This document shows, in pieces, positions 1 through 46,533 of a stretch of 46,533 nt of DNA. Below the pieces are notes generated by a model, which saw only the letters and a program-made list of their open reading frames with translations, was not told the DNA's origin and did not search any database. The position numbers and the translations under genes are program-made. Each line of letters opens with the position of its first letter. The stretch's first letter is position 1. This DNA comes from a virus: the IMG/VR virus record IMGVR_UViG_3300045988_064709. The stretch is one strand, 5' to 3'.

Positions 1-99
1 ATTTTTTTTTCAGCCCTTTATATTGTATAGCTGCCCTATTTGCGAAAAATCTTGATTTTCTTTTATATTTACACTTGACAAGTAAATGCAAATATGCTA
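1..99 (+). repeat. Terminal direct repeat copy 1, identical to 46435..46533
   Basis: Base-by-base comparison of both window ends gives 99/99 identity. This implies a circular or terminally redundant genome with a unique length of 46434 bp. Confidence 0.95.
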
Positions 100-6894: not shown

Positions 6895-7482
6895 ATGGCA
6901 AAGATCGACACCAGCAAAATCACGGGCTATGCGGAAATGTCTGCGGAAGACAAGCTGAAAGCTCTGGAAGCGTTCGAGTATGAGGACAACGCCGCCGAGC
7001 TGGAAAAGCAGAAAGCCGCTGTTTCCAAGGCCAACTCCGAAGCCGCTGAGTGGAAGCGCAAGCACAACGCTCTGTTAGGTGAGGACGAGAAGAAGAAGCA
7101 GGAGCAGGAGGAAAAGTTCGCCAACATGGAGAAGGAGCTTTCCGAACTGCGGGAAGCCAAGAGTGCTTCTGAGTACAAAGCTCAACTGATTGGGCTGGGG
7201 TATGCAGAAGATTTGGCGTCTAAGACCGCAAAGGCGATGGTTGCTGGTGATACCATGACGGTTATCGCTAATCAGCAGAAGTTCCTTGACGAGTACACAA
7301 AACAGGTCAAGGCTGACACTCTGAAAAAGACCCCCAAGCCCACTCCCGGTGCCGGTGGCGGTACTGGCGAGATGGATTACGCCAAGAAAATCGAGGAAGC
7401 ACGGACAAACGGTGATTTTGCCGCCGTTGCTTACTACACCCGCCTGCAAGCCGAAGCGGAAGCGCAGGCGAAAAAAGAGTAA
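6895..7482 (+). CDS. Scaffolding protein (GP20-like, coiled coil)
   Basis: 195 aa, rich in E, K and A. Sits between the portal and capsid genes. AGGAGG RBS. Confidence 0.7.
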   Translation: MAKIDTSKITGYAEMSAEDKLKALEAFEYEDNAAELEKQKAAVSKANSEAAEWKRKHNALLGEDEKKKQEQEEKFANMEKELSELREAKSASEYKAQLIGLGYAEDLASKTAKAMVAGDTMTVIANQQKFLDEYTKQVKADTLKKTPKPTPGAGGGTGEMDYAKKIEEARTNGDFAAVAYYTRLQAEAEAQAKKE

Positions 7483-7497
7483 AGGAGAGTTTTTACT

Positions 7498-8526
7498 ATG
7501 GCAGATCAGTTTGCTATGAGTTTCGGGGTACTCAATTACTCCGGTATGCTCTTTAACAAGGGCAACACCCGCACCCCTCTGAGTTCTATCATCGGCGGTC
7601 GTGCCAAGACCACGAACCATGTTGAGTTCGTGACCGGTCAGGAGTTCACCTCTGGCGGCGGCGCTCAGCCTGCTATCAGCGAGAGTGCTTCTCTGACCGC
7701 CCCTGACGCTACCGTTGTGACCCGTGCGCAGAAGACCAATGTGACTCAGATCTTTCAGGAGTCTGTCGGCATTTCCTACGGAAAGATGTCTAACATGGGT
7801 ACTCTGAGCGGTATCAATGTGGCGGGTCAGCAGGCCAACCCCATGAACGAGCTGGACTTTCAGGTTGCCGCCAAGATGATGAAGGTCAATGCCGACATTG
7901 AGTACACCTTCATTAACGGTGTCTACAACAAGGCCACTGATGATACCAAGATCAACAAGACCCGTGGTCTGGTTCCCGCAATCACTTCCAACACTACGGC
8001 GATGGCTTCCAAGCCCCTCGGCCTGTGGGATATTGCCGACATGGTGAAGAAGATTTACGGCGCTCACGCTCCCACCGATGGCCTGTGCCTGTGGTGTGAC
8101 GCTGTGACCATGTTCCAGATCAACGCTGACGCTGTTCAGAACGGTCTGACCGTGGTTCCCGCTGCCCGTAACATCAACGGTATCGCCCTGTCCAGCGTGG
8201 TCACGCCCATCGGCGTTGTCTATCTGTACCTTGGCGAGTACCTGCCTGCCGGTACTGCCCTGCTGCTGAACCTGAGCGTTCTGGCTCCCGTTTATCAGCC
8301 TGTCCCCGGCAAGGGCAACTTCTTCCTTGAGCCGCTGGCGAAGGTCGGCGCTGGTGAGAAGTATCAGCTCTTTGGTCAGATCGGCCTTGACCACGGCCCT
8401 GAGTGGTTCCACGGTAAGTTTACCGGTATCTCTACCGAGTTTACCGCTCCCACTTACAGCCGCAGCGTCTTTATCGCCAATGACGCAAACAACCCCGTGA
8501 ACACTAAGGCCGTTGCTGGCGGCTAA
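7498..8526 (+). CDS. Major capsid protein
   Basis: 342 aa, directly after the scaffold gene, with a strong RBS. The composition fits an HK97-fold capsid protein. The family assignment is from memory only. Confidence 0.75.
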   Translation: MADQFAMSFGVLNYSGMLFNKGNTRTPLSSIIGGRAKTTNHVEFVTGQEFTSGGGAQPAISESASLTAPDATVVTRAQKTNVTQIFQESVGISYGKMSNMGTLSGINVAGQQANPMNELDFQVAAKMMKVNADIEYTFINGVYNKATDDTKINKTRGLVPAITSNTTAMASKPLGLWDIADMVKKIYGAHAPTDGLCLWCDAVTMFQINADAVQNGLTVVPAARNINGIALSSVVTPIGVVYLYLGEYLPAGTALLLNLSVLAPVYQPVPGKGNFFLEPLAKVGAGEKYQLFGQIGLDHGPEWFHGKFTGISTEFTAPTYSRSVFIANDANNPVNTKAVAGG

Positions 8527-8566
8527 GAGTGGCGCAGGAGTAAAACAGACATTTTAGAAAGGAACG

Positions 8567-8893
8567 GTGGAAAGCATGACGGACGCTGAGAAGTTGAAAA
8601 TGGTGAAAGCCATGACCGGCGAGACAGACGAGGACACGCTTTCCACCTACCTTTCTATCGCCGGAAACAAGGTGTGCCGCAAGGCATACCCCTTTGACCC
8701 CACCGTGACCGCTGTTCCTGACCAGTACGCTCACATTCAGGTGGAGGTTGCCGTGTATCTGCTGAACAAGCGGGGAGCCGAAGGGCAGACCGCTCACAGC
8801 GAGAACGGTATCTCCCGCTCCTATGAAGACGGTGATGTGCCGCCTACGCTGCTGAGGGACATTGTTCCCTTTGCCGCTGTGATGGGAGGTTGA
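8567..8893 (+). CDS. Head-tail connector (gp6-like adaptor)
   Basis: 108 aa. The pattern EKLK..L....DEDTL...L..A is typical of gp6-like connectors. An alternative ATG start lies at 8576. Confidence 0.55.
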   Translation: MESMTDAEKLKMVKAMTGETDEDTLSTYLSIAGNKVCRKAYPFDPTVTAVPDQYAHIQVEVAVYLLNKRGAEGQTAHSENGISRSYEDGDVPPTLLRDIVPFAAVMGG

Positions 8894-8897
8894 GTGC

Positions 8898-9272
8898 ATG
8901 AGGACGTTGAACCGCAACAAATCGCCCTTCTGGTATCTGTTGTATGACCGCAAGGGACCTGCAAAGGACGAGTACGGCAACGAAACTGGTGAGGAACTGG
9001 TGGTTTACAAGCCTGCCGTGGCGATGAACGCCAATATCTCGGCGGCGACCGGCTCCGCTCAGGTGGAACAGTTCGGTAATTTCGCAGGGTACGACAAGGT
9101 GATCGTCACCGATGACCTGAGCTGCCCCATTGACGAGAATACCGTGTTGTTCATCGACAAGGAGCCGCAGTATGACGAGGACGGAAAACCGCTCTACGAT
9201 TACATGGTCAAGCGGGTCGCCAAGTCCCTCAATTCCATTTCTTATGCGGTCAGTAAGGTGACGGTATCGTGA
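8898..9272 (+). CDS. Head closure or neck protein (by position)
   Basis: 124 aa, within the neck module. Confidence 0.35.
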   Translation: MRTLNRNKSPFWYLLYDRKGPAKDEYGNETGEELVVYKPAVAMNANISAATGSAQVEQFGNFAGYDKVIVTDDLSCPIDENTVLFIDKEPQYDEDGKPLYDYMVKRVAKSLNSISYAVSKVTVS

Positions 9273-9793
9273 GTCAGACGATCAATGTTCCACTCTCCGG
9301 GAGAGGGATTGAGCAGCTGATACAGGAAGTTGAAAATCGTAAAACTTGGCTTCGAGATCGTGCAACGGTTTTTCTTGAACGCTTAGTTGCGATGGGGGTT
9401 GGAATTGCTTCTGCGTGTTTCGATGACGCAGCCTATGATGGCACAAATGATGTTGTTGTATCTGCGGAATATCGAGGTGAAAATGCAAGGGCGATTGTGG
9501 CAGTCGGTAAAGCGGTTTTATTTATCGAGTTCGGCACAGGTGTGACCTATCCCGATAACCACCCGGAAGCCAGAGATCACAATATGAAGCGTGGCGAGTA
9601 CGGTCAAGGTCACGGCAAGCAACAGTCTTGGGGCTATTACGGCGAACCCGGCACGAACGGAGTGCTGAAAGAAAAGAAGAACGGCGGGTTCGTGGTCATC
9701 ACTCACGGCAACCCCGCCAATATGCCGATGTATGAAACAAAGAAGGAATTGCAGTTTCAGCTTACCCGAATTGCGAAGGAGGTGTTTTCATGA
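9269..9793 (+). CDS. HK97 gp10-like neck/tail joining protein
   Basis: 174 aa. AVLFIEFGTG resembles the gp10-family EFGT motif. Overlapping start and stop codons with its neighbours. Confidence 0.45.
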   Translation: MSQTINVPLSGRGIEQLIQEVENRKTWLRDRATVFLERLVAMGVGIASACFDDAAYDGTNDVVVSAEYRGENARAIVAVGKAVLFIEFGTGVTYPDNHPEARDHNMKRGEYGQGHGKQQSWGYYGEPGTNGVLKEKKNGGFVVITHGNPANMPMYETKKELQFQLTRIAKEVFS

Positions 9794-10191
9794 TTGATGT
9801 GGAGAGTCAAATCTACACGCCGATTGCGGAAGCCCTGAGAGCGCAGTTTCCCGGTATCTTGGTCAGCGGTGAGTATGTCAATGCTCCTACCCGTTTCCCC
9901 TATGTGAGCTTGGTGGAGCAGGATAACTACACCACGGAAGCTCACATGGACAGCGGCGATACGGAGAGGTTCGCTACGCTGATGTACGAGGTGAATGTCT
10001 ACTCCGATAAGGCAGGCGGTAAGAAATCCGTTTGCCGGAAAATCATGAGGTTTGTGGACGATCTCATGTACGCCAAGAATTTCCGGCGTACTTCTCTGTC
10101 CCCGGTTCCCAATTTGGAGAACGCAACAATCTACCGTCTGGTTGCCCGATACAAGGCTGAAACGGACGGAACCACTCTTTATAGGAGGTAA
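9790..10191 (+). CDS. Tail completion/terminator protein (by position)
   Basis: 133 aa, immediately upstream of the tail tube gene. Confidence 0.35.
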   Translation: MIDVESQIYTPIAEALRAQFPGILVSGEYVNAPTRFPYVSLVEQDNYTTEAHMDSGDTERFATLMYEVNVYSDKAGGKKSVCRKIMRFVDDLMYAKNFRRTSLSPVPNLENATIYRLVARYKAETDGTTLYRR

Positions 10192-18041: not shown

Positions 18042-19187
18042 ATGAAAGATACTGTCATTAAGGGCAACGGTAAGTCCCGTTCTGTCAAGGCTCCTACCGA
18101 TATGCCTGCAACCTTCGAGGAATGGCGCACACAGCTTCTCGCCGGAACTGCCACCCTCGACATTGGTCTGAACGCCGCAGGCTGTGATGTGGTCGGCACA
18201 GCCATGAGCAAGGCAAATCTGCTGTCCGACACCACCAAGTCGGCACTGGAACTGAGCGGCAGCGACCCCACGGTGAATGACGCTCTGTATGCTCTGAGCC
18301 AGAAAGGTTCCCCCGCAGAGGTGCGTGTCATCGCTGATACAGGCTCGACCGTCACCATGAGCAGGGGCGGTAAAACCCTGACCGGTAAGGTTGCTTCGAC
18401 CGGCTATGCCACTCTGTACCCGACCGAGCTGGGTGACTGGACTATCGTGTTTACTTATAACGGTTCTCAGAAAACCAAGGTTTACACGCTGGAAGTCATC
18501 GGTATTGTGTATGTTTATCCCTTTGTGGTTGGCGCTACGCTGGAAGCTACCTCTTGGGATAACATCGCCGCTGTTTCCAAGTTCGGTCAGGCTCCGAACT
18601 ACTGGAAGGTCGGTGACAAGAAGAACATTACCGTCAACGGTGTGACCTATGCGGCACAGATCATCGGTTTTGACCATGACACTCTGACCACCGCAGACGG
18701 TAGCCGCACCAAGGCTGGTATCACCTTCCAGTTGGTCGATTGTTTGAACACGACCTATTCCATGAACGGCTCCAATACCAATGTGAACGGCTGGCGTGGT
18801 TCCACTATGCGTACCTCCACAATGGCAACACTGCTGAACCAGCTTTCCTCTGACCTGAAAAGTGTGTTGAAGTTCGTCAACAAAGTGACCAGCAAGGGCA
18901 ACAATCAGTCCGGTTTGGAAACCACTTCTGACAAGCTGTTCCTTCTGTCCGAGATCGAAGTTTTTGGTGCTACTCAGTATTCTTACGCCGGTGAGGGTAA
19001 GCAATACGAGTATTATACCGCAGGCAACAGCACCATTAAGAAGGTCAATGGTTCTGCGCACAGCTGGTGGGAGCGTTCTCCTATTTCCGGCAACACCTCC
19101 GACTTCTGTAGTGTGAACAGCAGCGGCACCGCCGACTATTACACCGCCAGCTACTCCTGTGGCGTGTCCTTCGGCTTCTGCGTTTAA
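18042..19187 (+). CDS. Tail fibre / receptor-binding protein, DGR target 1
   Basis: 381 aa. The C-terminus WWERSPISGNTSDFCSVNSSGTADYYTASYSCGVSFGFCV is encoded by VR1. Confidence 0.85.
   Translation: MKDTVIKGNGKSRSVKAPTDMPATFEEWRTQLLAGTATLDIGLNAAGCDVVGTAMSKANLLSDTTKSALELSGSDPTVNDALYALSQKGSPAEVRVIADTGSTVTMSRGGKTLTGKVASTGYATLYPTELGDWTIVFTYNGSQKTKVYTLEVIGIVYVYPFVVGATLEATSWDNIAAVSKFGQAPNYWKVGDKKNITVNGVTYAAQIIGFDHDTLTTADGSRTKAGITFQLVDCLNTTYSMNGSNTNVNGWRGSTMRTSTMATLLNQLSSDLKSVLKFVNKVTSKGNNQSGLETTSDKLFLLSEIEVFGATQYSYAGEGKQYEYYTAGNSTIKKVNGSAHSWWERSPISGNTSDFCSVNSSGTADYYTASYSCGVSFGFCV
19052..19181 (+). repeat. DGR variable repeat VR1
   Basis: Ungapped alignment to TR 19715..19844. In the body I count 18 mismatches, all at TR adenines. 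Confidence 0.9.
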
Positions 19188-19211
19188 TCCTCGGTTTCAT
19201 CAACACCAATC

Positions 19212-19229
19212 CCGCCCCGTCAGGGGCGG
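19212..19229 (+). promoter_or_regulatory. GC hairpin downstream of VR1 (CCGCCCC GTCA GGGGCGG)
   Basis: 7-bp perfect stem with a 4-nt loop. The 24-nt context AATCCCGCCCCGTCAGGGGCGGTG is repeated after VR2. Confidence 0.75.
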
Positions 19230-19249
19230 TGTAAGAAAGGAATGTTGGC

Positions 19250-19678
19250 GTGTCAGTCATCAAAGCTATGCGTGGCGAAAGCTCCATGCAGTTCATCGAA
19301 ACCGCCAGACGGTTAGAGCTTCACGCTTTCTCTGTCTGCACCAAGGCTCCTAAAAGATACGCACCTCTGCTGACAAACCGTATCTTCGAGCTGGCTTCCA
19401 CGGTTCACGAGGAAGTCCGAGCGGCGAACAACATCTACCCGCACAATCAGCATGAAGCGCAAATGCGGCGAGATCACCTGATTAACGCCAACATCGCCCT
19501 TCAAAATCTTAGCCCGAAGCTGACTTTGCTCTATGACGCTATTCTTCAAAACCCTGAAAAGTGTCCGTGGATTGACCACGCCATGAAGGAATTTGGAGAG
19601 TACATCACGGACGAAGCACAGCTTATCTCCAAGGTTCGGAAAGCTGACCACGAGAGGTATAAAGACCTCCCTGTGTGA
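19250..19678 (+). CDS. avd: DGR accessory variability determinant (Avd-like)
   Basis: About 140 aa, helical and basic, located between the target gene and the TR as in BPP-1. GTG at 19250 or ATG at 19268. Confidence 0.7.
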   Translation: MSVIKAMRGESSMQFIETARRLELHAFSVCTKAPKRYAPLLTNRIFELASTVHEEVRAANNIYPHNQHEAQMRRDHLINANIALQNLSPKLTLLYDAILQNPEKCPWIDHAMKEFGEYITDEAQLISKVRKADHERYKDLPV

Positions 19679-19714
19679 GTTTTTCATTGGGTCAAGCCCT
19701 GTAATTGTTACCGT

Positions 19715-19844
19715 TTCTGCGAACAACTGGTGGGAGCGTTCTCCTAATTCCGGCAACACCAACAACTTCTGTAATGTGAACAACAACGGCAACGCCAACA
19801 ATAACAACGCCAGCAACTCCAATGGCGTGTCCTTCGGACTCTGC
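19715..19844 (+). repeat. DGR template repeat (TR)
   Basis: AAC/AAT-rich. It would translate as NNWWERSPNSGNTNNFCNVNNNGNANNNNASNSNG. It serves as template for both VR1 and VR2. Confidence 0.9.
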
Positions 19845-20066
19845 AACTTCGCATAGGTCAGTCGTAGTAACCCCTTTGGGCGAAATCGGTACCTTTTGCA
19901 GAGGGAGGGCTTGTTCCCGGCTACCAAGCCAAAACACCCCGTCCGATGTAGTCAGCCGGACGCTTCTTGCATGGTGAGCGATTGTACGGTAGCTCATTTC
20001 ATGGCTGGTACTACAAGCAGTTAGAACCCGTACCCGACAATAAGACTGTACGGAGGGGAACATTTT
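19715..20066 (+). ncRNA. Putative DGR RNA (TR plus about 220-nt spacer upstream of the RT)
   Basis: No credible ORF. It lies between avd and the RT. In characterised DGRs the TR-spacer RNA primes cDNA synthesis. The boundaries here are inferred. Confidence 0.5.
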
Positions 20067-21215
20067 ATGACAAGTGAAGAACGGAGAGAAGCCCGTTATC
20101 AGCGCAGAAAAGCCAAGCGGGATGAAGCTCGTCTGCGGCGAAGCAAAGAATGTGGTGATTTCGATGAAGTCTTTTCGTTCAGACACCTTTACCTTTCCGG
20201 GAAGAAATGCTGTAAGGGTGTCTACTGGAAAAACTCAACTCAGCGGTATATCGGCAATATCATTCCGATCATCGCAAAGACCCATCGTGAACTTCAAAAC
20301 GGAACCTTCAAGCACCGTGGTTTTCACGCTTTCACCATCATGGAACGAGGGAAAAAGCGGTATATCCGATCAGTCCATATCACGGAACGAGCGGTTCAAA
20401 AGTGTCTGTGTGACTACTGCTTGGTTCCCATCTATTCGGCCTGTTTTATCTATGACAACTCAGCCAGTTTGAAACACCGAGGTATGGACTTCGCCCTGCG
20501 CCGTATGACCTGTTACCTTCAACGGCATTACAGGAAGTACGGTCTGGAAGGAGGGGTTCTGCTTTACGATTTTCACAGCTTCTTTGACTCAGCTCCACAT
20601 GAGCCGCTGTTCCGTGAAGCCGACCGCAGACTTCATGACCCGAAAATCAGAGAGCTTGCGAACAGCTTTGTTACAGACTTCGGTTCTGTGGGCTTGGGTC
20701 TTGGCAGTCAGGTGTCTCAGACAAACGCCCTCATGCTTCCCAATATGATCGACCACTATTTCAAAGAGGTCTGCCGTATCAAAGCCTATGAGCGATACAT
20801 GGACGATGGTGCGGCAATCAGCCCTGACATTGATGACCTGTATCTCTGTATGGACGGGTTGAAGATCATCTGCGAGAAGTGCGGTCTGGAACTGAACTTG
20901 AAGAAGACAAGGGTCATTCCTCTCAGAGATTATTACCGCTGGTTGAAAACGAGGTTCATCATCACACCGACCGGCAAGGTTGTTCGGAAGATGAACAGGG
21001 ACTCAACAAAAATCGTTCGACACAAGCTCAGGGCTTTCCGAGGAAAGCTCGACCGGGGCGAAATGACCTTGGCTGACATTCGGTGTTCCGTGGACTCCTA
21101 CAACGGTCACATGAAGCGAGGTCACAGCTTCAAGGTGCGGCAGCGCACCAATCAGTATTTCAAATCATTGTACGGGTTCTACCCGGACGAGAAAGGTTGG
21201 AAAAGCCATGTATAA
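20067..21215 (+). CDS. DGR reverse transcriptase
   Basis: 382 aa. Carries LGLGSQVSQ (the DGR-type LGxxxSQ motif 4) and RYMDDGA (YxDD). RBS GGAGGGG. Confidence 0.9.
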   Translation: MTSEERREARYQRRKAKRDEARLRRSKECGDFDEVFSFRHLYLSGKKCCKGVYWKNSTQRYIGNIIPIIAKTHRELQNGTFKHRGFHAFTIMERGKKRYIRSVHITERAVQKCLCDYCLVPIYSACFIYDNSASLKHRGMDFALRRMTCYLQRHYRKYGLEGGVLLYDFHSFFDSAPHEPLFREADRRLHDPKIRELANSFVTDFGSVGLGLGSQVSQTNALMLPNMIDHYFKEVCRIKAYERYMDDGAAISPDIDDLYLCMDGLKIICEKCGLELNLKKTRVIPLRDYYRWLKTRFIITPTGKVVRKMNRDSTKIVRHKLRAFRGKLDRGEMTLADIRCSVDSYNGHMKRGHSFKVRQRTNQYFKSLYGFYPDEKGWKSHV

Positions 21216-21876
21216 AATTATCAAGAAGGACGCAGTTCTCGGCATTGTGAGCAATCTAACTTGGGTATGTATGCAGGAAAACGGCTGCTACGGCCTGACG
21301 GTCGAGGACAATGCACAGGGTATTGCCTTGAACGGCACCGTGTACCATGTCAACGGACACCCCAAACTGGACGGTGCTGAAACGGTTTCGGTCGAAGAAG
21401 TGGACGATGGCGTTTACGCTTCCAGTCTGACCGCTCTGCTGACTGACCCGAACGACATCCGTAATTCTGAGCAGTTCCGCAAGGCTGTTCAGATGTTCGC
21501 CAAAAGCCTTGACGAAGACTCTGCGATGATGATTGCAACCATCTACGACCCCTATCAGGTCGGTCATGCCTATGCTGTTGGTGATTATTTCACCTACGGC
21601 GTGAACGGTGTAGGCGACCCGCAGCTCTACAAGGTAGTACAGGCGCACACTTCTCAAGCAGATTGGAAGCCTGACACACTTCCCGCTCTCTACACTCCGA
21701 TTGGCCTGACCCCCTCCGGCTACCCCGTGTGGACTCAGCCCACAGGCGCTCATGACGCTTACAACAAGGGTGACATTGTGAATTACAACGACAAGCTGTA
21801 CCGCAGTCTGATTGACGGGAATGTGTATTCCCCGGACGCTTATCCCGCTGGCTGGGAAGAATACACCAGCGAGTAA
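21208..21876 (+). CDS. Protein with two C-terminal CBM5/12-like carbohydrate-binding repeats
   Basis: 222 aa. YAVGDYFTYG...LYKVVQAHTSQADWKP and YNKGDIVNYNDKLYRSLIDGNVYSPDAYPAGWEEY both fit the CBM5/12 pattern. Overlaps the RT by 8 nt. Confidence 0.5.
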   Translation: MYKIIKKDAVLGIVSNLTWVCMQENGCYGLTVEDNAQGIALNGTVYHVNGHPKLDGAETVSVEEVDDGVYASSLTALLTDPNDIRNSEQFRKAVQMFAKSLDEDSAMMIATIYDPYQVGHAYAVGDYFTYGVNGVGDPQLYKVVQAHTSQADWKPDTLPALYTPIGLTPSGYPVWTQPTGAHDAYNKGDIVNYNDKLYRSLIDGNVYSPDAYPAGWEEYTSE

Positions 21877-24043: not shown

Positions 24044-25686
24044 TTAGTTTGAACGAACACCGTTCCCCACACAATGTAGGGTTCGGATATGCGCTCAATG
24101 GTACACTCAGACTCCCCAAAATCGAACCCTGTCGCTTCTTCGGCGGCGGGGTTCTTTTCTACCCGGAAAGTCTTGGTTTTGCAAGAGGTTAGGTTATATG
24201 CGGTAGTGATTTTATATCCGTCAGGTTCGTCCCACACTGTAACGGAATTGACGAGCAAATCAATGAGCCGCCTGCGGAAGTCTTCGTCTTCGATATTCCC
24301 GTATTTGAACTGGCTCAACCAGAATACGATCTGGTCACGGTCAATTCGGTAGACGAATTTTTCCTCAGCTTTAATCTCTTTGTTGAGGGTCTTCTTTTCA
24401 TGTTCGAGCTGGACAAGTCGGTTCATCAATGTTTCGGAAGCAATACCCTTTTCAATGGCAGCGGTGATATTTGTGATTGACTTTTCGACCTCCGATAACT
24501 GAGCGGTCAACTGCGGAATGTGTGTGTCGTTTATTAAATCCCGTTCACTCTGCCGGATTGCCATGTCTGCAATTTCATCAATAAGTTGATCGGTCAAAAG
24601 GTTGAGAGCATCACGGGCTACTATCCCTTCGATATAATCTTTTTTCAAAGGTCGCTTGTCACACCCAAGTTTTCTCTTTTTCGTGTAGCAGGAATAGTAG
24701 TGGTAGACCTTGCCATGTCTACCGGCTCCGCTTTCACCATTCATAGAAGCCCCACAATGACCGCAGAACAGCTTTCCAGACAAGAGGTAATCTACCTTAG
24801 CCTTACCCCTTGCTGGGGCTGTAGCGGTCTTAGAAAGCCGCCGCTGTACCGTTTCAAACAGCTCCTTATCAATGATGGCGGGAATACCATTTTCAATGAC
24901 AATATCCTTGTAGGTATAAGTGCCGATATAGCGAGTATTACGGAACATGGCCTTAAAGCTACTGCGGTTGAACTCCGTGTTTTTGGCGGTCTTATATCCG
25001 GCAGAGTTAAACTTTCGGCAAATGCCAGCGACACTTTCACCGTTGGCATAAAGAGAGAACGCTTCCTGAACGATGTGGGCGGTGTCGGGGGCAACGACCA
25101 GTTTGTGATTTTCCACCTTGTACCCAAGGGGGATATGACCGCCTACACTGTGGCACTTCAAGGCGGACTCACGCATACCTCTTGTGACCTTCTGCGACAG
25201 CTCGGCGGAGAAAAACTCAGCCATACCCTCTAACACAGATTCCAAAATGATACTCTCAGGGCTGTCGGTAAGGTGTTCTGTGGCGGAGAGGACTTTCACG
25301 CCGTTCTTCCGCAGACGCATTTTCATAATTGCGCTATCGTTGCGGTTACGAGCAAAACGGTCGAGCTTCCAGACGATGACATATTCCCAATTCTGTTTTG
25401 CGCTGTCTGCAATCATTTCCATGAGGTGAACCCGCTTTTCCACATCTTTGCGAGCGGTCGTTGCTCGGTCAACATAGATTGCTACAATGCGGTAGTGGTT
25501 TGCTTTACAGAAGGCACGGCAGTCACGAAGCTGCCCTTCAATGGATTGGTCACTTTGGCCTGTGGAGCTATACCGAAGATAGAGAGCAACATCTTGATCG
25601 CCGTTGTAAAGCGTATATGGGTCTTCCTGAAATTGAGAGATTTCTTCCTCTGTCAGACAGGAAAGGTCGATTGGAAATTTTTTCAT
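24025..25686 (-). CDS. Large serine recombinase (integrase)
   Basis: 553 aa. Contains VALYLRYSSTGQ (catalytic Ser), a recombinase domain, the zinc ribbon CGHCG...YYSCYTKKRKLGC, and a C-terminal coiled coil. Confidence 0.9.
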   Translation of the reverse strand: MKKFPIDLSCLTEEEISQFQEDPYTLYNGDQDVALYLRYSSTGQSDQSIEGQLRDCRAFCKANHYRIVAIYVDRATTARKDVEKRVHLMEMIADSAKQNWEYVIVWKLDRFARNRNDSAIMKMRLRKNGVKVLSATEHLTDSPESIILESVLEGMAEFFSAELSQKVTRGMRESALKCHSVGGHIPLGYKVENHKLVVAPDTAHIVQEAFSLYANGESVAGICRKFNSAGYKTAKNTEFNRSSFKAMFRNTRYIGTYTYKDIVIENGIPAIIDKELFETVQRRLSKTATAPARGKAKVDYLLSGKLFCGHCGASMNGESGAGRHGKVYHYYSCYTKKRKLGCDKRPLKKDYIEGIVARDALNLLTDQLIDEIADMAIRQSERDLINDTHIPQLTAQLSEVEKSITNITAAIEKGIASETLMNRLVQLEHEKKTLNKEIKAEEKFVYRIDRDQIVFWLSQFKYGNIEDEDFRRRLIDLLVNSVTVWDEPDGYKITTAYNLTSCKTKTFRVEKNPAAEEATGFDFGESECTIERISEPYIVWGTVFVQTKRHSLP

Positions 25687-26321
25687 GCAAATCTCCTTTT
25701 TAGCTCCATGACTCTACCGACAAAGCGCAATCGTCCAATTTCAACACCGCCGAAAACACGGGGAGGATAGTGTGGGTTAAAAGAGCGAAGGGTCACAGTA
25801 TCTTCATCAATGCTGATTTTCTTAACAAATCCTTCTTCGTCATCAACAATGACAACCATAAGAGTATCTGTTTCGGGAGGTGTATCCTTTTTAACCAGCA
25901 CTAAATCGTGATCGTCTAAGACTGGCGACATACTATCTCCGTCAACTTGTAACCAGAAACAATCATCACAGTCATATTCGGGGTCAACTTGTTCATACCC
26001 CAATGCTTCTTGCTGAGCGATGACACCTTTTCCTGCGGACGCATGACCGAAAATAGGTCGCTTGCAATTCTTTTCATAAGGTTCGGTGGTTAAACCAACA
26101 GAGGACAAGTGAAAGAGAGGGTCGTCAGTTTCACCTTTCAAATACTCAGCCGTTGTTCCAAGATTGATAGCGAGAGTTTTCAAGTCTTCATCTGAAATCA
26201 TGCGGTCAGGCTTTTTATCTACATCGTTCAAATAATATTTGGGGCGGTCGATAAGTTTGCAAATATAGGTGACGCTTTTCCCTTGTTGTTTGGCTAAATC
26301 TCTAATACGACTTGTGTTCAT
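25683..26321 (-). CDS. CI/LexA-like repressor (HTH plus S24 peptidase domain)
   Basis: N-terminal HTH (IRDLAKQQGKSVTYICKLI). C-terminal GDSMSP and VKK form the Ser-Lys dyad. GAAGGAGG RBS before the ATG at 26321. ATGA overlap with int. Confidence 0.85.
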   Translation of the reverse strand: MNTSRIRDLAKQQGKSVTYICKLIDRPKYYLNDVDKKPDRMISDEDLKTLAINLGTTAEYLKGETDDPLFHLSSVGLTTEPYEKNCKRPIFGHASAGKGVIAQQEALGYEQVDPEYDCDDCFWLQVDGDSMSPVLDDHDLVLVKKDTPPETDTLMVVIVDDEEGFVKKISIDEDTVTLRSFNPHYPPRVFGGVEIGRLRFVGRVMELKRRFA

Positions 26322-26339
26322 AAATACCTCCTTCAAAAA

Positions 26340-26364: not shown

Positions 26365-26393
26365 TTGACAATCCTACAAAGGTAGGATATACT
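26365..26393 (+). promoter_or_regulatory. Rightward early promoter (TTGACA, 17-nt spacer, TATACT)
   Basis: Near-consensus hexamers read directly from the sequence. Confidence 0.7.
26371..26388. promoter_or_regulatory. Operator-like inverted repeat ATCCTAC-N4-GTAGGAT
   Basis: Perfect 7-bp arms filling the spacer between the -35 and -10 elements of the rightward promoter. Confidence 0.65.
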
Positions 26394-26497: not shown

Positions 26498-26526
26498 ATT
26501 GTACCATTACGCCCACTGGTTGTCAA
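26498..26526 (-). promoter_or_regulatory. Leftward promoter (TTGACA, 17-nt spacer, TACAAT) facing the rightward promoter
   Basis: The reverse complement of 26498..26526 reads TTGACA ACCAGTGGGCGTAATGG TACAAT. It would transcribe towards the repressor-integrase operon. Confidence 0.6.
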
Positions 26527-26563: not shown

Positions 26564-26782
26564 GTGAAAGAGCGTGAGAAAATTCGCTATCGCCTGAGCG
26601 TCAATCACCTGTCGTTTGCATGGTTGATTGATATGCTCCGAAAGCGGGGTATTGAAACGAACGGCCCTGTCCTGAGTGCAATTCTCGCAGGGACTCGTAA
26701 CGGCCCTTCTGTGGACAAAATCATCGCTGAGTCTATCGACATTCTGGACTGGTACGAGCGGCAGATCGGCGGTGTGTCATGA
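26564..26782 (+). CDS. Small early protein in the Cro position
   Basis: 72 aa. GTG start after AAAGGAGAGG. First gene of the rightward operon, with a possible HTH. Confidence 0.4.
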   Translation: MKEREKIRYRLSVNHLSFAWLIDMLRKRGIETNGPVLSAILAGTRNGPSVDKIIAESIDILDWYERQIGGVS

Positions 26783-26961: not shown

Positions 26962-27158
26962 TGAAAAAAGTATTTGGAGTATTGGCATTTCTCTCGTTTT
27001 TCTACCTGTTGGGTGTCGTTGGTGCGGTAGAGCAAGACACAATGGCTCTCGGCGCAGGCATTGTTCGCATGGGTATCGGCCTTGGCTGCTTCTGGCTGTT
27101 CTGTGAGCTGTCTGGTGCGTTTTATCCCGCCCCGCCGAGAAAAAGAAAGAGCCGCTGA
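26961..27158 (+). CDS. Small membrane protein (2 TM segments)
   Basis: 65 aa from the ATG at 26961: MKKVFGVLAFLSFFYLLGVVG...GIGLGCFWLFCEL. Confidence 0.45.
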   Translation: MKKVFGVLAFLSFFYLLGVVGAVEQDTMALGAGIVRMGIGLGCFWLFCELSGAFYPAPPRKRKSR

Positions 27159-27241
27159 CGGAACTGGTACTTCCATCAACGGCAAGCGTAAAAGCTCAAT
27201 CTGATTATATCAGAACCTATCATTTTGTAAAGGAGAACTTT

Positions 27242-28075
27242 ATGAATAGTACGATTGCAAAACTCGCTGACGAGTTCGAGAAGATGGAGAAAATCATCGC
27301 TTCTCAGAAGAAGATGATCGAAACCCTTATGCCTACGGGCTATGTTGATACCGATACCGTCAAACTTCACCTTAATTCTGTGTATGGTGTCATGTTCGGC
27401 GGTCGCCCCTCTCCGAAGCGCTGCAAGCTGGAAGACTGTTCTTGGGACGAGATCAATATGTATTCCTCCTTCGGCCTTGCCGACAAGATGTTCGAGGTCG
27501 GTGATACCAAGAAGTTCCGTCTGGCTGACGGCTCCTACCTGACTGCCCGTATCATCGGGTTCAACCATGACTACGCAAGAGACGGCAGTCTGGTTCATAT
27601 CACCTTTGAGACTGTGGAAACCCTTGACGGTGACATTCCTATGAATGAGAAGCCTACCAACGAGGGCGGCTGGGACGCTTCCTATCTCCGTGCCAAGCTC
27701 AACGGCAACTTCTTCGAGAAGCAGCTTCCCGCTGATTTGAAAGCGGTCATCAAGCCCGTGGTGAAGATGACCGCCAAGAGCAGCAAGAACGAAGTACGGG
27801 TTCCTTCCGTTGACAAGCTGTTCGTTCTTTCTGAGCAGGAGGTCTTCGGTCGCAAGATTTATTCCTGCGGTTATGAGGGTAAGTGGTACGAGTGGTACAA
27901 GCGAGAGAACACGCCCTATGGCAAGTGCAAGCAGAATGGTGAGAAGGATTGGAGATGGGAGCGTTCTCCTTGTTCCGGCGACACCAACTACTTCTGTAGG
28001 GTGAACTACAACGGCATCGCCAACGGTAACAACGCCAGCTACTCCTTTGGCGTGTCCTTCGGCTTCTGCATTTGA
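27242..28075 (+). CDS. DGR target 2, a paralogue of the C-terminal half of target 1
   Basis: 277 aa. Shares SWD, IIGF(D/N)HD, LF(L/V)LSE.EVFG and W.ERSP....GVSFGFC with 18042..19187. AAAGGAG RBS. Confidence 0.85.
   Translation: MNSTIAKLADEFEKMEKIIASQKKMIETLMPTGYVDTDTVKLHLNSVYGVMFGGRPSPKRCKLEDCSWDEINMYSSFGLADKMFEVGDTKKFRLADGSYLTARIIGFNHDYARDGSLVHITFETVETLDGDIPMNEKPTNEGGWDASYLRAKLNGNFFEKQLPADLKAVIKPVVKMTAKSSKNEVRVPSVDKLFVLSEQEVFGRKIYSCGYEGKWYEWYKRENTPYGKCKQNGEKDWRWERSPCSGDTNYFCRVNYNGIANGNNASYSFGVSFGFCI
27956..28069 (+). repeat. DGR variable repeat VR2
   Basis: Ungapped alignment to TR 19731..19844 shows 13 mismatches at TR adenines plus one T-to-G difference at 28000. Confidence 0.85.
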
Positions 28076-28093
28076 TCGGGTATCTCGTAAATC

Positions 28094-28111
28094 CCGCCCC
28101 GTCAGGGGCGG
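28094..28111 (+). promoter_or_regulatory. GC hairpin downstream of VR2, identical to the one after VR1
   Basis: CCGCCCC GTCA GGGGCGG within the identical 24-nt context. Confidence 0.75.
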
Positions 28112-28127
28112 TGAAAGGAGTGAAAAC

Positions 28128-28532
28128 ATGAATGTCAATCGTAAGGTTGGCACTGGCTTTGAAAGAGACTTATGCCTGAGCCTGTCGGGTTGTGGCTTTT
28201 GGGCGCACAATCTCACTCAGAACAGTCAAGGTCAGCCGTTCGATGTGATTGCGGCTCGAAACGGTATCAGCTATCCCATTGACTGTAAGGATTGTTCCAA
28301 GAACATTTTCAAGATGGAGCGTATCGAAGAAAACCAGTTTTCCGCTATGACGCTCTGGAAGGAAACCGGGAATGGAGAGGGCTGGTTTGCAATCAGGTTG
28401 ATAACTGGTGAAGTTCGATTTATCTCCTTCTCTACGCTTTTGGAATTGTCTGTTTTGCGAACCGTGCTGTCTGCCAACGATATTAGGCGATACGGTATCA
28501 CACTCGGAGAGTGGGTGTCCCAATGCAAGTGA
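28128..28532 (+). CDS. Holliday junction resolvase (Hjc/PD-(D/E)XK-like)
   Basis: 134 aa. The G.GFER....L...G, D+IA and DCK pattern is present. AAAGGAG RBS. Confidence 0.6.
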   Translation: MNVNRKVGTGFERDLCLSLSGCGFWAHNLTQNSQGQPFDVIAARNGISYPIDCKDCSKNIFKMERIEENQFSAMTLWKETGNGEGWFAIRLITGEVRFISFSTLLELSVLRTVLSANDIRRYGITLGEWVSQCK

Positions 28533-29923
28533 CTGTTGGCAATCAGCTTCGAATTGAAAATCCGTCTGAGCAGTTGCTTACATGGTGCAAGAAGCAACTT
28601 ATCCTTCCCAATCCTGAGTACGCCAAGAAAGTCCGTATGCACTTTTGGGTCGGCAACACCCCTGAGAAGTTGTATCTGTTTCAATGGGACGGTGACACAT
28701 TAGTTCTTCCCTATGGTTGTCTGAATGATGTGCTGGTGATGGACGATTGCAACATGAAGGTCAATCTTCCTACACCGACCGAGGTGGACTTCGGTTGCGC
28801 CATTCCGCTCTATGACTACCAAGTAGAAGCCAAGGAAGCACTGATAACTGCCTACTATGGTATTCTTCAAGCCCCTGCGGGGTGTGGTAAAACGCAGATC
28901 GGAATTGCTGTTGCGGCAGATACAGGTCGAAGGACACTCTGGCTGACCCATACACGGGATTTGCTCGTACAGAGTAAAAGCCGAGCGGAGCAGTACATGA
29001 GTCCTTCTCTGACTGGCACGATTACCGAAGGTAGGGTTCAAATCGGTAAGGCAATCACCTTCGCAACGGTGCAGACCATGTGCAACCTCAATCTGAGTCA
29101 ATACCGTGATGTTTGGGATTGTATCATCGTGGACGAGTGCCACCGTGTAGCCGGAACCCCGACCGCTATGACGCAGTTCTCAAAGGTGCTGAACGCTCTG
29201 GCAGCTCGGCACAAGTACGGCCTATCTGCTACGGTTCATCGAGCAGACGGTATGATTGCCGCCACCTACGCATTGCTGGGCGGGATTGCCTATCAAGTGC
29301 CGGAGGAAGCGGTGAAAGACAAGATCATGACCGTTAGCGTTCTCCCCCGTGCCACCCATCAAGGACTCAGCCGTGAGTTCTTGGACACGGACGGTACGAT
29401 CATCTATGCCAAGTTGGTCAATTTCCTCGCTGACCGTTATCCCCGAAACAATCTGATTGTCGCTGATCTTGTGGCAAACCGAGATCACTACAATCTCATT
29501 CTCTCTGACCGGCTGACGCATTTGGAAACTCTGATGAACAGGCTTCCGCCCGACCTGAGAAAACAGGCGGTCATGATTGATGGGAAGATGACCACGAAGA
29601 AAGCCAAAGCTCTCCGAGAGCAGGCCATTGAGGAAATGCGGCAGGGGCGCAAGCGGTATCTGTTCGCCACTTACTCTCTGGCGAAAGAGGGTCTGGATAT
29701 TCCTCGGCTCGACCGGCTGTACCTGACTACGCCGCAGAAAGACTACGCTGTAATAACTCAGAGCATTGGTCGTATCGCTCGTACTTTCGAGGGAAAGGGT
29801 GAACCCATCGCCTATGATTATGTGGACGATGGTATCCAGTATCTCGTGAGAAGTTACAAGAAGCGGTGTACCACCTACCGCAAGTGCGGTTGTAAATTCA
29901 TCGAACAGGAGGTGTCGAAGTGA
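28523..29923 (+). CDS. SF2 DEAD/DEAH-box helicase
   Basis: Motif I APAGCGKT, motif II VDECHR, motif III SAT, motif VI QSIGRIAR. Confidence 0.8.
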   Translation: MQVTVGNQLRIENPSEQLLTWCKKQLILPNPEYAKKVRMHFWVGNTPEKLYLFQWDGDTLVLPYGCLNDVLVMDDCNMKVNLPTPTEVDFGCAIPLYDYQVEAKEALITAYYGILQAPAGCGKTQIGIAVAADTGRRTLWLTHTRDLLVQSKSRAEQYMSPSLTGTITEGRVQIGKAITFATVQTMCNLNLSQYRDVWDCIIVDECHRVAGTPTAMTQFSKVLNALAARHKYGLSATVHRADGMIAATYALLGGIAYQVPEEAVKDKIMTVSVLPRATHQGLSREFLDTDGTIIYAKLVNFLADRYPRNNLIVADLVANRDHYNLILSDRLTHLETLMNRLPPDLRKQAVMIDGKMTTKKAKALREQAIEEMRQGRKRYLFATYSLAKEGLDIPRLDRLYLTTPQKDYAVITQSIGRIARTFEGKGEPIAYDYVDDGIQYLVRSYKKRCTTYRKCGCKFIEQEVSK

Positions 29924-46434: not shown

Positions 46435-46533
46435 ATTTTTTTTTCAGCCCTTTATATTGTATAGCTGCCCTATTTGCGAAAAATCTTGATTTTCTTTTAT
46501 ATTTACACTTGACAAGTAAATGCAAATATGCTA
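46435..46533 (+). repeat. Terminal direct repeat copy 2, identical to 1..99
   Basis: 99/99 identity. Confidence 0.95.

Follow-up and report, generated by a model that had tools for sequence, protein, structure and literature searches.

A remote second target of a phage diversity-generating retroelement, encoded beside the immunity switch and diversified at the population level

The virus record IMGVR_UViG_3300045988_064709 from IMG/VR, whose entire sequence of 46,533 nucleotides is called the window here, is a complete circular temperate phage genome in which a single diversity-generating retroelement (DGR) serves two recipient sites. One of these sites, the variable repeat VR1, belongs to target 1 (T1), the gene that closes the tail module next to the retroelement. 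The other, VR2, ends the gene of target 2 (T2), a lectin-like protein encoded at a distance, outside the late structural and tail module, between the immunity switch and genes for a resolvase and a helicase. At the population level, VR2 is a bona fide and actively used remote DGR recipient. The complete account, in which one DGR has two working recipients and T2 acts off the virion, is judged slightly the better bet. A preliminary description of this DNA, made from the sequence alone, had implied that the arrangement was new; remote second DGR targets have in fact been published (Shimadzu orf43, Lagaffe, Lelie/CP11, Quimbyvirus), and T2 is a further case of them.

VR2 aligns without gaps with the template repeat (TR) over 108 nt, with 94/108 positions identical and 14 mismatches. 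Thirteen of these fall at TR adenines, as first described, and 12 of the thirteen are diversified positions; the change at 19838 (A to C) is a fixed difference between VR-type and TR-type ends and not a product of diversification. The remaining mismatch, which had been overlooked, is a T-to-G change at TR 19775 that converts the codon AAT to AGG (Arg). The repeat lies in frame (frame 0) at the 3' end of the T2 open reading frame (ORF) and ends 12 nt before the stop codon, and its variable adenines sit in AAC or AAT codons, so that a stop codon cannot arise. VR1 shows 16 mismatches with TR, every one at an adenine, and its homology with TR reaches about 16 nt further 5' (TR from ~19715) than that of VR2. 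Within the window, the two variable repeats differ at 13 of 15 AAY codons, in keeping with the earlier remark that they are unlike at most adenine-templated codons.

In the BPP-1 model, a distinct VR end of the initiation of mutagenic homing (IMH) type and a GC hairpin downstream of it are the defining features of a DGR recipient. VR1 and VR2 both carry the VR-type end GGCTTCTGC, and TR carries the TR-type end GGACTCTGC; the two end types are invariant among 98 VR-type and 28 TR-type copies from related genomes. The IMH-like end of VR2 extends over the 21-mer GGCGTGTCCTTCGGCTTCTGC, which is the same in VR1 and differs from TR at two positions. A 24-nt element, AATCCCGCCCCGTCAGGGGCGGTG, follows VR1 and VR2 in identical form, has no other copy in the window, and is taken to be the target-recognition hairpin of the DGR. 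Among relatives, the VR-type end and the hairpin occur together in 72 VR2 and 22 VR1 copies, and the hairpin follows none of 28 TRs; at about 55% T2 identity, the stem takes the compensatory form CCGCTCC/GGAGCGG. Shuffled sequence is expected to yield about zero matches to the 21-nt VR end and likewise to an 18-nt hairpin, and a chance origin of the recipient signals is excluded. VR2 is a working recipient because it has the VR-type end and the GC hairpin just as VR1 does, and both are absent from TR. The possibility that the hairpin behind VR2 is an intrinsic terminator dividing T2 from the downstream resolvase gene was considered and rejected, since no U-run follows it.

The use of VR2 is seen in populations of related sequences, which at 90% identity form four T2 clusters with 1967, 1856, 7308, and 1469 distinct members. 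Fifty-five distinct T2 relatives, with 93% identity or more once the VR is set aside, each have a VR2 peptide of their own (55/55). Entropy in this set reaches 2.38 bits at the 18 VR codons for which TR has an adenine at position 1 or 2, compared with 0.04 bits for the remaining 18 VR codons and 0.08 bits for the sequence beyond the VR. In the 25 related genomes that hold both their own TR and VR2, 425 of 445 VR2 mismatches (95.5%) are located at TR adenines. Two diverged lineages (L077 and L114) reveal the direction of transfer: their TRs bear 4-10 lineage-specific substitutions at positions other than adenines, all of which are present in both VR1 and VR2, and information therefore flows from TR to VR2. 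At adenine sites, VR1 and VR2 are about as similar within a genome (identity 0.460) as between genomes (0.449; permutation p = 0.30, n = 16), and each retains about half of its adenines. Given this lack of within-genome likeness and the equal adenine retention, the rewriting of VR2 is independent of that of VR1 and equally extensive, which bears out the proposal of independent diversification from a single TR. Co-conversion of VR1 and VR2 from one cDNA, or selection of both for the same ligand, was rejected, as the within-genome correlation is missing.

Several observations weigh against equal and continuing use of VR2. In one relative (L105), TR lacks six adenines, and VR1 follows the new TR but VR2 does not. 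In two others (L058 and L084), TR has an 18-nt duplication that is absent from VR2, which keeps its canonical length; here a different T1-TR-RT cassette, whose reverse transcriptase (RT) is 76% identical, stands beside an unchanged VR2. These three recombinant or mutant lineages suggest that VR2 may be rewritten less often than VR1, or that it can be orphaned by a swap of the cassette. Moreover, population diversity records rewriting over evolutionary time and not activity within a culture, and the phages Lelie and CP11 gave no read-level VR signal in culture (PMC11792537).

Nearly all near-complete relatives possess both T2 and a DGR, and most T2 contigs that seem to be DGR-less are truncated contigs of the prophage form. 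A natural deletion of 1.6 kb, equivalent to window 19415..21035, is found in L331 (IMGVR_UViG_3300013383_000041), where it joins codon ~55 of the accessory gene avd to codon ~320 of the RT gene, so that the C-terminal part of Avd, TR, and most of RT are gone. This genome retains T1 and an intact T2 (locus L096), and its VR2 shows four non-adenine differences from the canonical TR, which is above the usual number. In L307 (IMGVR_UViG_3300029375_000327, 7250..9949), homology with the window ends about 20 nt past Avd, before TR, and two large serine recombinase genes come next; the explanation is either an assembly junction or the insertion of a mobile element into the DGR.

T2 is a paralogue of the C-terminal part of T1, as had been proposed. 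Residues 34-277 of T2 align with residues 139-381 of T1, roughly two thirds of that protein, with 41% identity (E 2e-49), and the shared motifs quoted in the preliminary description are present in the alignment. Both proteins score above the gathering threshold of the Pfam family DUF6273 (PF19789; T2 53.7 bits vs a threshold of 23.5), and all 51 of the 51 T2 family members examined match it. The N-terminal region of T1 (residues 1-138) has no counterpart in T2. In T2 itself, an amphipathic helix occupies aa 3-29, a linker modelled with low confidence covers aa 30-56, and aa ~60-277 form the lectin-like DUF6273 domain, whose C-terminus contains VR2. This agrees with the earlier view of a different, coiled-coil-like N-terminus with neither a tail-type region nor a signal peptide. 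In the AlphaFold2 model of the helix, hydrophobic residues recur in heptad spacing (5, 8, 12, 15, 19, 22, 26, 29), and E11, M15, and I19 are nearly invariant across the family; the modelled helix probably drives oligomerisation. The linker varies in length and contains Cys-Pro-Cys motifs in many homologues.

A first AlphaFold2 model, of full-length T2 with an alignment of T2 sequences only, was poor in its C-terminal half (pLDDT 67.6). The second, restricted to residues 57-277 and with the family of orf43 from the Roseburia phage Shimadzu added to the alignment, reached a pLDDT of 90.1 and a pTM of 0.89, and in this domain model the VR2 residues are predicted to form four short beta-strands and hairpins at the C-terminus. 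The sole solved structure resembling the T2 model (m6ac1a79f40e4) is PDB 9qa6, the DUF6273 N-terminal domain of an IgA peptidase from Thomasclavelia ramosa, an enzyme on the surface of this gut bacterium that cleaves the IgA of its host. A search of PDB sequences with a T2 profile gave no match, and a Pfam scan of the 51 family members at E values up to 1 returned only DUF6273, with nothing for the N-terminal helix or the linker. The T2 sequence contains no signal peptide, lipobox, or transmembrane segment, and no structural family beyond DUF6273 was matched in Pfam or PHROG. With its C-terminal VR and without an Ig-like domain, T2 also falls outside the tentaclin definition (Baykov 2023).

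With 15 randomisable positions, VR2 can encode about 4e17 peptides. The AAT-templated sites show strong site-specific enrichment of Arg, Tyr, or Phe (chi-square p 1e-6 to 1e-15); at site 244, for instance, CGT (Arg) occurs in 23 of 67 sequences, compared with about 3% expected. VR1 of T1 has the same residue preferences at its variable sites, and in both proteins either selection or a scaffold constraint acts on the variable face. The bias was rejected as a sign of a T2-specific ligand because VR1 is biased identically.

DUF6273 has evidently also expanded as a cellular protein family. Tandem arrays of three to four DUF6273 paralogues, 25-33% identical to T2, are present in L012, L016, L024, and other loci; they come from uncultured Bacilli (metagenome-assembled genomes from horse faeces) and Mycoplasma-like genomes, and no phage genes were recognised in their vicinity.

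The genomic setting of T2 is that of an early gene, and family matches confirm its previously described place in a rightward early operon. The order begins with a serine integrase and an S24 repressor on the minus strand, continues across divergent promoter-like sites to a Cro-like helix-turn-helix (HTH) regulator, a 60-aa ORF, and a 65-aa protein, and then reaches T2, whose start codon is preceded at 6 nt by a strong ribosome binding site (AAAGGAG). Downstream follow genes for an Hjc-type resolvase, a helicase, a methyltransferase, a DNA polymerase, Erf, and a YqaJ-type exonuclease. The rightward promoter-like site would drive the early operon including T2, and a consensus scan found no plus-strand terminator-like site between it and T2. 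Only 52 nt separate T2 from Hjc, and the two genes are probably co-transcribed. Related Oscillospiraceae prophages keep T2 in this place, with the immunity switch on one side and the resolvase and helicase genes on the other: the order Int-CI-Cro-T2-Hjc-helicase is kept at 42-56% T2 identity in seven loci (L005, L006, L109, L111, L113, L114, and L116).

Two further features were noted just upstream of T2. The 65-aa protein has a basic C-terminus (MKKVFGVLAFLSFFYLLGVVGAV...PPRKRKSR) and no family match, and it could be a superinfection-exclusion or holin-like factor. On the minus strand, a promoter-like site with a perfect extended -10 element (TGaTATAAT, 27212..27204) and the -35 element TTTACA (27231..27226) is followed, about 14 nt past the predicted start, by a 13-bp hairpin with a U-run (27183..27141). 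The predicted leftward RNA of about 55-60 nt (27140..27231 region) would run antisense to two stretches, the intercistronic leader of T2 and the 3' end of the gene for the 65-aa protein, in a layout that resembles the lambda oop RNA. Down to 42% T2 identity, relatives preserve the -10 element and the palindrome TCTGAT-TAT-ATCAGA almost without change, and over the same range their hairpin shows compensatory substitutions.

Following the BPP-1 model, RT and Avd would reverse-transcribe the TR RNA with misincorporation opposite adenines, and the resulting cDNA would replace in trans any VR that bears an IMH and a hairpin. The distance between TR and VR2 would be irrelevant, because the cDNA acts in trans. 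The figure of 8 kb given in the preliminary description is correct only for the genome in its circular or virion state; after integration as a prophage, about 38 kb separate the two sites. The early rightward transcript would yield T2 alongside recombination and replication proteins. T2 would then form an oligomer through its helix, with a flexible linker and a lectin-like domain that displays the randomisable positions on its C-terminal beta-hairpins, and it would bind variable host factors, such as defence proteins, within the newly infected or induced cell. A soluble, multivalent intracellular binder is proposed because T2 belongs to the early operon and has neither an export signal nor a virion-attachment domain. 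An early intracellular protein would also link genotype to phenotype, a link without which hypervariation is not selectable. The chance that T2 is a non-virion, early, and probably intracellular hypervariable binder is put at about even.

Some features of T2 speak for the opposite assignment, in which it is a second virion adhesin or receptor-binding protein that is encoded outside the late module and docks through its N-terminal helix, giving a particle with two independently diversified specificities, for example for a host receptor and for mucus or another surface. T2 and the presumed receptor-binding domain of T1 share 41% identity, use the same TR, and agree in the site-specific residue preferences of the variable face; among the structural neighbours of T2 in BFVD are DUF6273 proteins with the annotation tail-collar fibre. 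A second adhesin on the virion would be expected to resemble T2, its N-terminal coiled coil could dock to a tail or head protein, and the authors who described tgt2 and the 'small target' of other phages guessed receptor binding (PMC10743442; 10.1101/2024.10.15.618418). In addition, the promoter and terminator assignments are consensus scans, early transcripts can last into late infection, and T2 may be present in virions. Against a virion adhesin stand the early-operon site beside resolvase and helicase genes, conserved down to 42% identity, and the fact that in Shimadzu, Lagaffe, Lelie, and Quimbyvirus, too, the second target lies in a non-structural region. The N-terminal 138 aa of T1 are also missing from T2, in which no domain for virion attachment is recognisable, although a docking helix is still conceivable, and VR1 and VR2 show no within-genome correlation. 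The adhesin is possible but the less probable assignment. A role other than receptor binding on the virion, as suggested in the preliminary description, is favoured by the non-structural position of the second target in four lineages and is not established.

It is improbable that T2 acts as a free lectin, released at lysis or exported by an unrecognised route, which would mask the receptors carried by debris or recognise glycans of host or mucosal origin. Its domain is lectin-like, a DGR-diversified DUF6273 tentaclin is reported from the Faecalibacterium secretome in a 2026 preprint (10.64898/2026.05.08.723808), and a comparable proposal exists for the Mushuvirus tentaclin. T2 itself, however, has no signal peptide or lipobox, and it lies behind a repressor-controlled promoter, which makes expression in lysogens unlikely. 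A diffusing product would uncouple genotype from phenotype, and hypervariation would therefore be hard to select; receptor masking also predicts a correlation between VR1 and VR2, and none is seen.

That VR2 is a decayed copy, a relic of domain duplication, is very hard to sustain: the single non-adenine mismatch in the window VR2, the failure of VR2 to follow the altered TRs of L105, L058, and L084, and the retention of T2 by the DGR-deletion phage L331 would fit a relic, but at the population level this candidate was rejected by the adenine pattern (95.5% of mismatches in 25 genomes, and differences in every close relative only at A-templated codons), by an IMH-like end and hairpin as intact as those of VR1, and by the passage of lineage-specific non-adenine TR changes into VR2. 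Decay, which had been named beforehand as the outcome that would overturn the proposal, is thus not what was found in the population; adenine mutagenesis has affected VR2 as heavily and cleanly as VR1.

Table 1. Features of the window that bear on the retroelement, its two targets, and the setting of T2
Feature	Position	Strand	Basis or remark
Target 1 (T1), 381 aa, final gene of the tail module	18042..19187	+	DUF6273; carries VR1
VR1	19068..19175, or from ~19052	+	Hairpin copy at 19208..19231
Avd accessory protein	19250..19678	+	phrog_3206 'Avd protein of DGR', phrog_30516
TR (template repeat)	19731..19838 for VR2; from ~19715 for VR1	+	34 adenines
RT-2 RNA motif, Rfam RF03077	19853..20078	+	167 bits vs gathering score 40, E 3.8e-40
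DGR reverse transcriptase	20067..21215	+	Pfam RVT_1; phrog_1423, 2.6e-66
CI-like S24 repressor, left side of the immunity switch	25683..26336	-	Pfam Peptidase_S24, phrog_4
Rightward promoter-like site, TTGACA-17-TATACT, 11/12 matches	26365..26393	+	Consensus scan only
Divergent promoter-like site	26526..26498	-	Consensus scan only
Cro-like HTH regulator, first gene of the rightward operon	26564..26782	+	phrog_1468
65-aa ORF, immediately upstream of T2	26963..27160	+	Two predicted transmembrane segments
Target 2 (T2) gene, 277 aa	27242..28075	+	ORF; Pfam DUF6273 3e-14; phrog_37900
VR2	27956..28063	+	36 codons, 15 templated by AAC/AAT
VR-type 3' end, IMH-like (21-mer)	28049..28069	+	Same in VR1; TR differs at 2 positions
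24-nt hairpin element	28090..28113	+	7-bp GC stem 28094-28100 / 28105-28111, 4-nt loop GTCA
Hjc-type Holliday-junction resolvase	28128..28532	+	Pfam Hjc, phrog_843; databases call a 134-aa form
DEAD/ResIII helicase	28511..29923	+	Family matches

The retroelement itself is arranged in the order Avd, TR, RT-2 RNA, and RT (Table 1). TR is conserved at 108/108 positions in most related genomes. The RT-2 RNA motif is matched over its full length between TR and the RT start codon and most likely serves the DGR RNA as a structured spacer. Immediately downstream of RT, and overlapping its stop codon, lies a gene (21208..21876, plus strand) for a protein of 222 aa that contains CBM5/12 carbohydrate-binding repeats; relatives keep it beside RT.

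A direct repeat of 99 nt at both ends (window 1..99 and 46435..46533) identifies the record as a complete circular assembly of about 46.4 kb. The host is Dysosmobacter or a related member of the Oscillospiraceae: the nearest genome match is a prophage of Dysosmobacter segnis BX15, with 93% T2 identity, and more relatives were found in Oscillospiraceae. Megablast against named phages gave only two unannotated fragments, and the window phage is therefore not a described isolate. The exact T2 protein is present in the samples ERZ28662543 (SAMEA3665086) and ERR1137442. Prophage-form contigs switch to host DNA at window ~24098, within the 3' end of the serine-integrase gene, so that integration alters the C-terminus of the integrase; a likewise changed integrase C-terminus has been reported for Shimadzu. 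In the prophage, T2 and the DGR consequently stand at opposite ends and are brought close to each other only across attP.

Apart from the non-structural proposal made for Quimbyvirus, phage DGRs have been understood as tropism switches that act on virion receptor-binding proteins. An equally diversified early-gene target without a virion anchor suggests that directed hypermutation is also used otherwise, possibly for intracellular recognition of host factors. If early binders of this kind are real, the DGR would serve counter-defence as well as adsorption; if T2 is a virion adhesin, it would represent an unusual structural gene kept within an early operon. Human gut metagenomes contain the T2 family in great abundance: its four 90%-identity clusters hold more than 12,000 distinct protein variants. 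The role of small targets is directly testable in cultivated D. segnis BX15, with its related prophage, and in the culture-inducible phages Shimadzu and Lelie.

The DGR of Bordetella phage BPP-1, with its target Mtd, reportedly consists of an Avd-TR-RT cassette with adenine-specific mutagenesis. Its VR is said to lie at the C-terminus of a lectin-fold protein, with an IMH that is unlike IMH* and a GC hairpin with a 4-nt loop downstream of the VR; its only target reportedly lies adjacent to it and is a proven tail-fibre tip protein, and Mtd is said to belong to the FGE/Mtd family and not to DUF6273. The window DGR resembles it in the cassette, the adenine specificity, the C-terminal VR, the IMH/IMH* pair, and the hairpin, and it differs in having a second, remote target and in the DUF6273 family of its targets.

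A close parallel is found in Shimadzu, in which diversification of both VRs has been shown by experiment and VR2 belongs to orf43 (Cornuault et al., bioRxiv 10.1101/575076; ISME J 2020). Here, too, one TR serves two VRs, VR1 lies in a tail-fibre gene just upstream of Avd, TR, and RT, and VR2 is part of a small DUF6273-only protein about 14 kb away, which is 27% identical to T2 (tblastn E 6e-7) and whose family likewise forms clusters of thousands of variants. In contrast to the window phage, Shimadzu is a myovirus of a Lachnospiraceae host, and orf43 has 209 aa and no N-terminal helix. Its authors left the function of orf43 open and did not comment on the gene module (10.1101/575076); in the present analysis, orf43 was located between a methyltransferase gene and erf, in a replication/recombination module.

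Pairs of 'large' and 'small' DUF6273 targets have been described for the Faecalibacterium phages Lelie/Toutatis and CP11 (PMC11792537; bioRxiv 10.1101/2024.10.15.618418), and a second VR for Lagaffe (PMC11792537). The accession MG711465 belongs to phage Brigit and not to Toutatis. As in the window phage, one TR supplies both members of each pair, which are DUF6273 proteins or, in Lagaffe, Mtd-like; population alignments show adenine-specific variation at both VRs, and some Toutatis-like phages without a DGR keep both targets, as L331 does. These phages differ in being myoviruses, the large target of Lelie lies downstream of RT and is tentaclin- or Hoc-like, and similarity to T2 is too low for tblastn. 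Receptor binding was proposed by the authors. The present analysis located VR2 of Lelie in orf58, the small target, between a DNA methyltransferase and a regulator with a replication initiator, and VR2 of Lagaffe in a protein with an FGE domain, whose gene stands immediately before those for an exonuclease, Gam, Erf, and SSB.

A similar layout is described for tgt2 of the gut phages nd4 and nd12, a single globular DUF6273 or C-lec-like domain with short flanking helices and a C-terminal VR that forms a surface beta-hairpin (Baykov et al. 2023, PMC10743442); nd12_tgt2 has an additional N-terminal helical motif (PMC10743442). The differences are that target 1 of nd4 and nd12, a tentaclin, carries its VR close to the 5' end, that both targets belong to the DGR cassette, and that neither has been reported in an early operon. 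In the Bacteroides phage Quimbyvirus, a second C-type-lectin target was read as a non-structural protein engaged in phage-host conflict (Benler et al. 2021, Microbiome 9:78, PMC8008677). One of its targets lies in the structural module and the second away from it, among nuclease and methyltransferase genes, an arrangement comparable to that of the window; the Bacteroidetes host, the unrelated phage family, the opposite strand of the second target, and the frameshifted RT set it apart. In cellular DGRs (Treponema denticola, Legionella, cyanobacteria), one TR can also serve several distant VRs (PMC4891356, PMC5758913, PMC10907252), and some of the targets are intracellular sensors or conflict-system proteins. 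Those elements differ in being chromosomal, with lipoprotein or STAND/kinase-linked targets, none of which is a phage early gene.

Taken individually, these facts and the non-structural idea are prior art; the publications cited here do not bring their recurrence across lineages together. A second target in a non-structural region was located here in at least four lineages, namely the window phage, Shimadzu, Lagaffe, and Lelie. Because the lectin-fold families differ (DUF6273 vs FGE/Mtd-like), this placement suggests convergence and not a shared inherited accident. It is tentatively conceivable that at least four or five unrelated temperate gut phage lineages, Quimbyvirus among them, each with a reduced paralogue of its DGR-diversified receptor-binding domain moved into the early DNA-metabolism or methyltransferase region, have come to deploy early intracellular antibody-like hypervariable binders against variable host factors, for example as programmable inhibitors of host defences.

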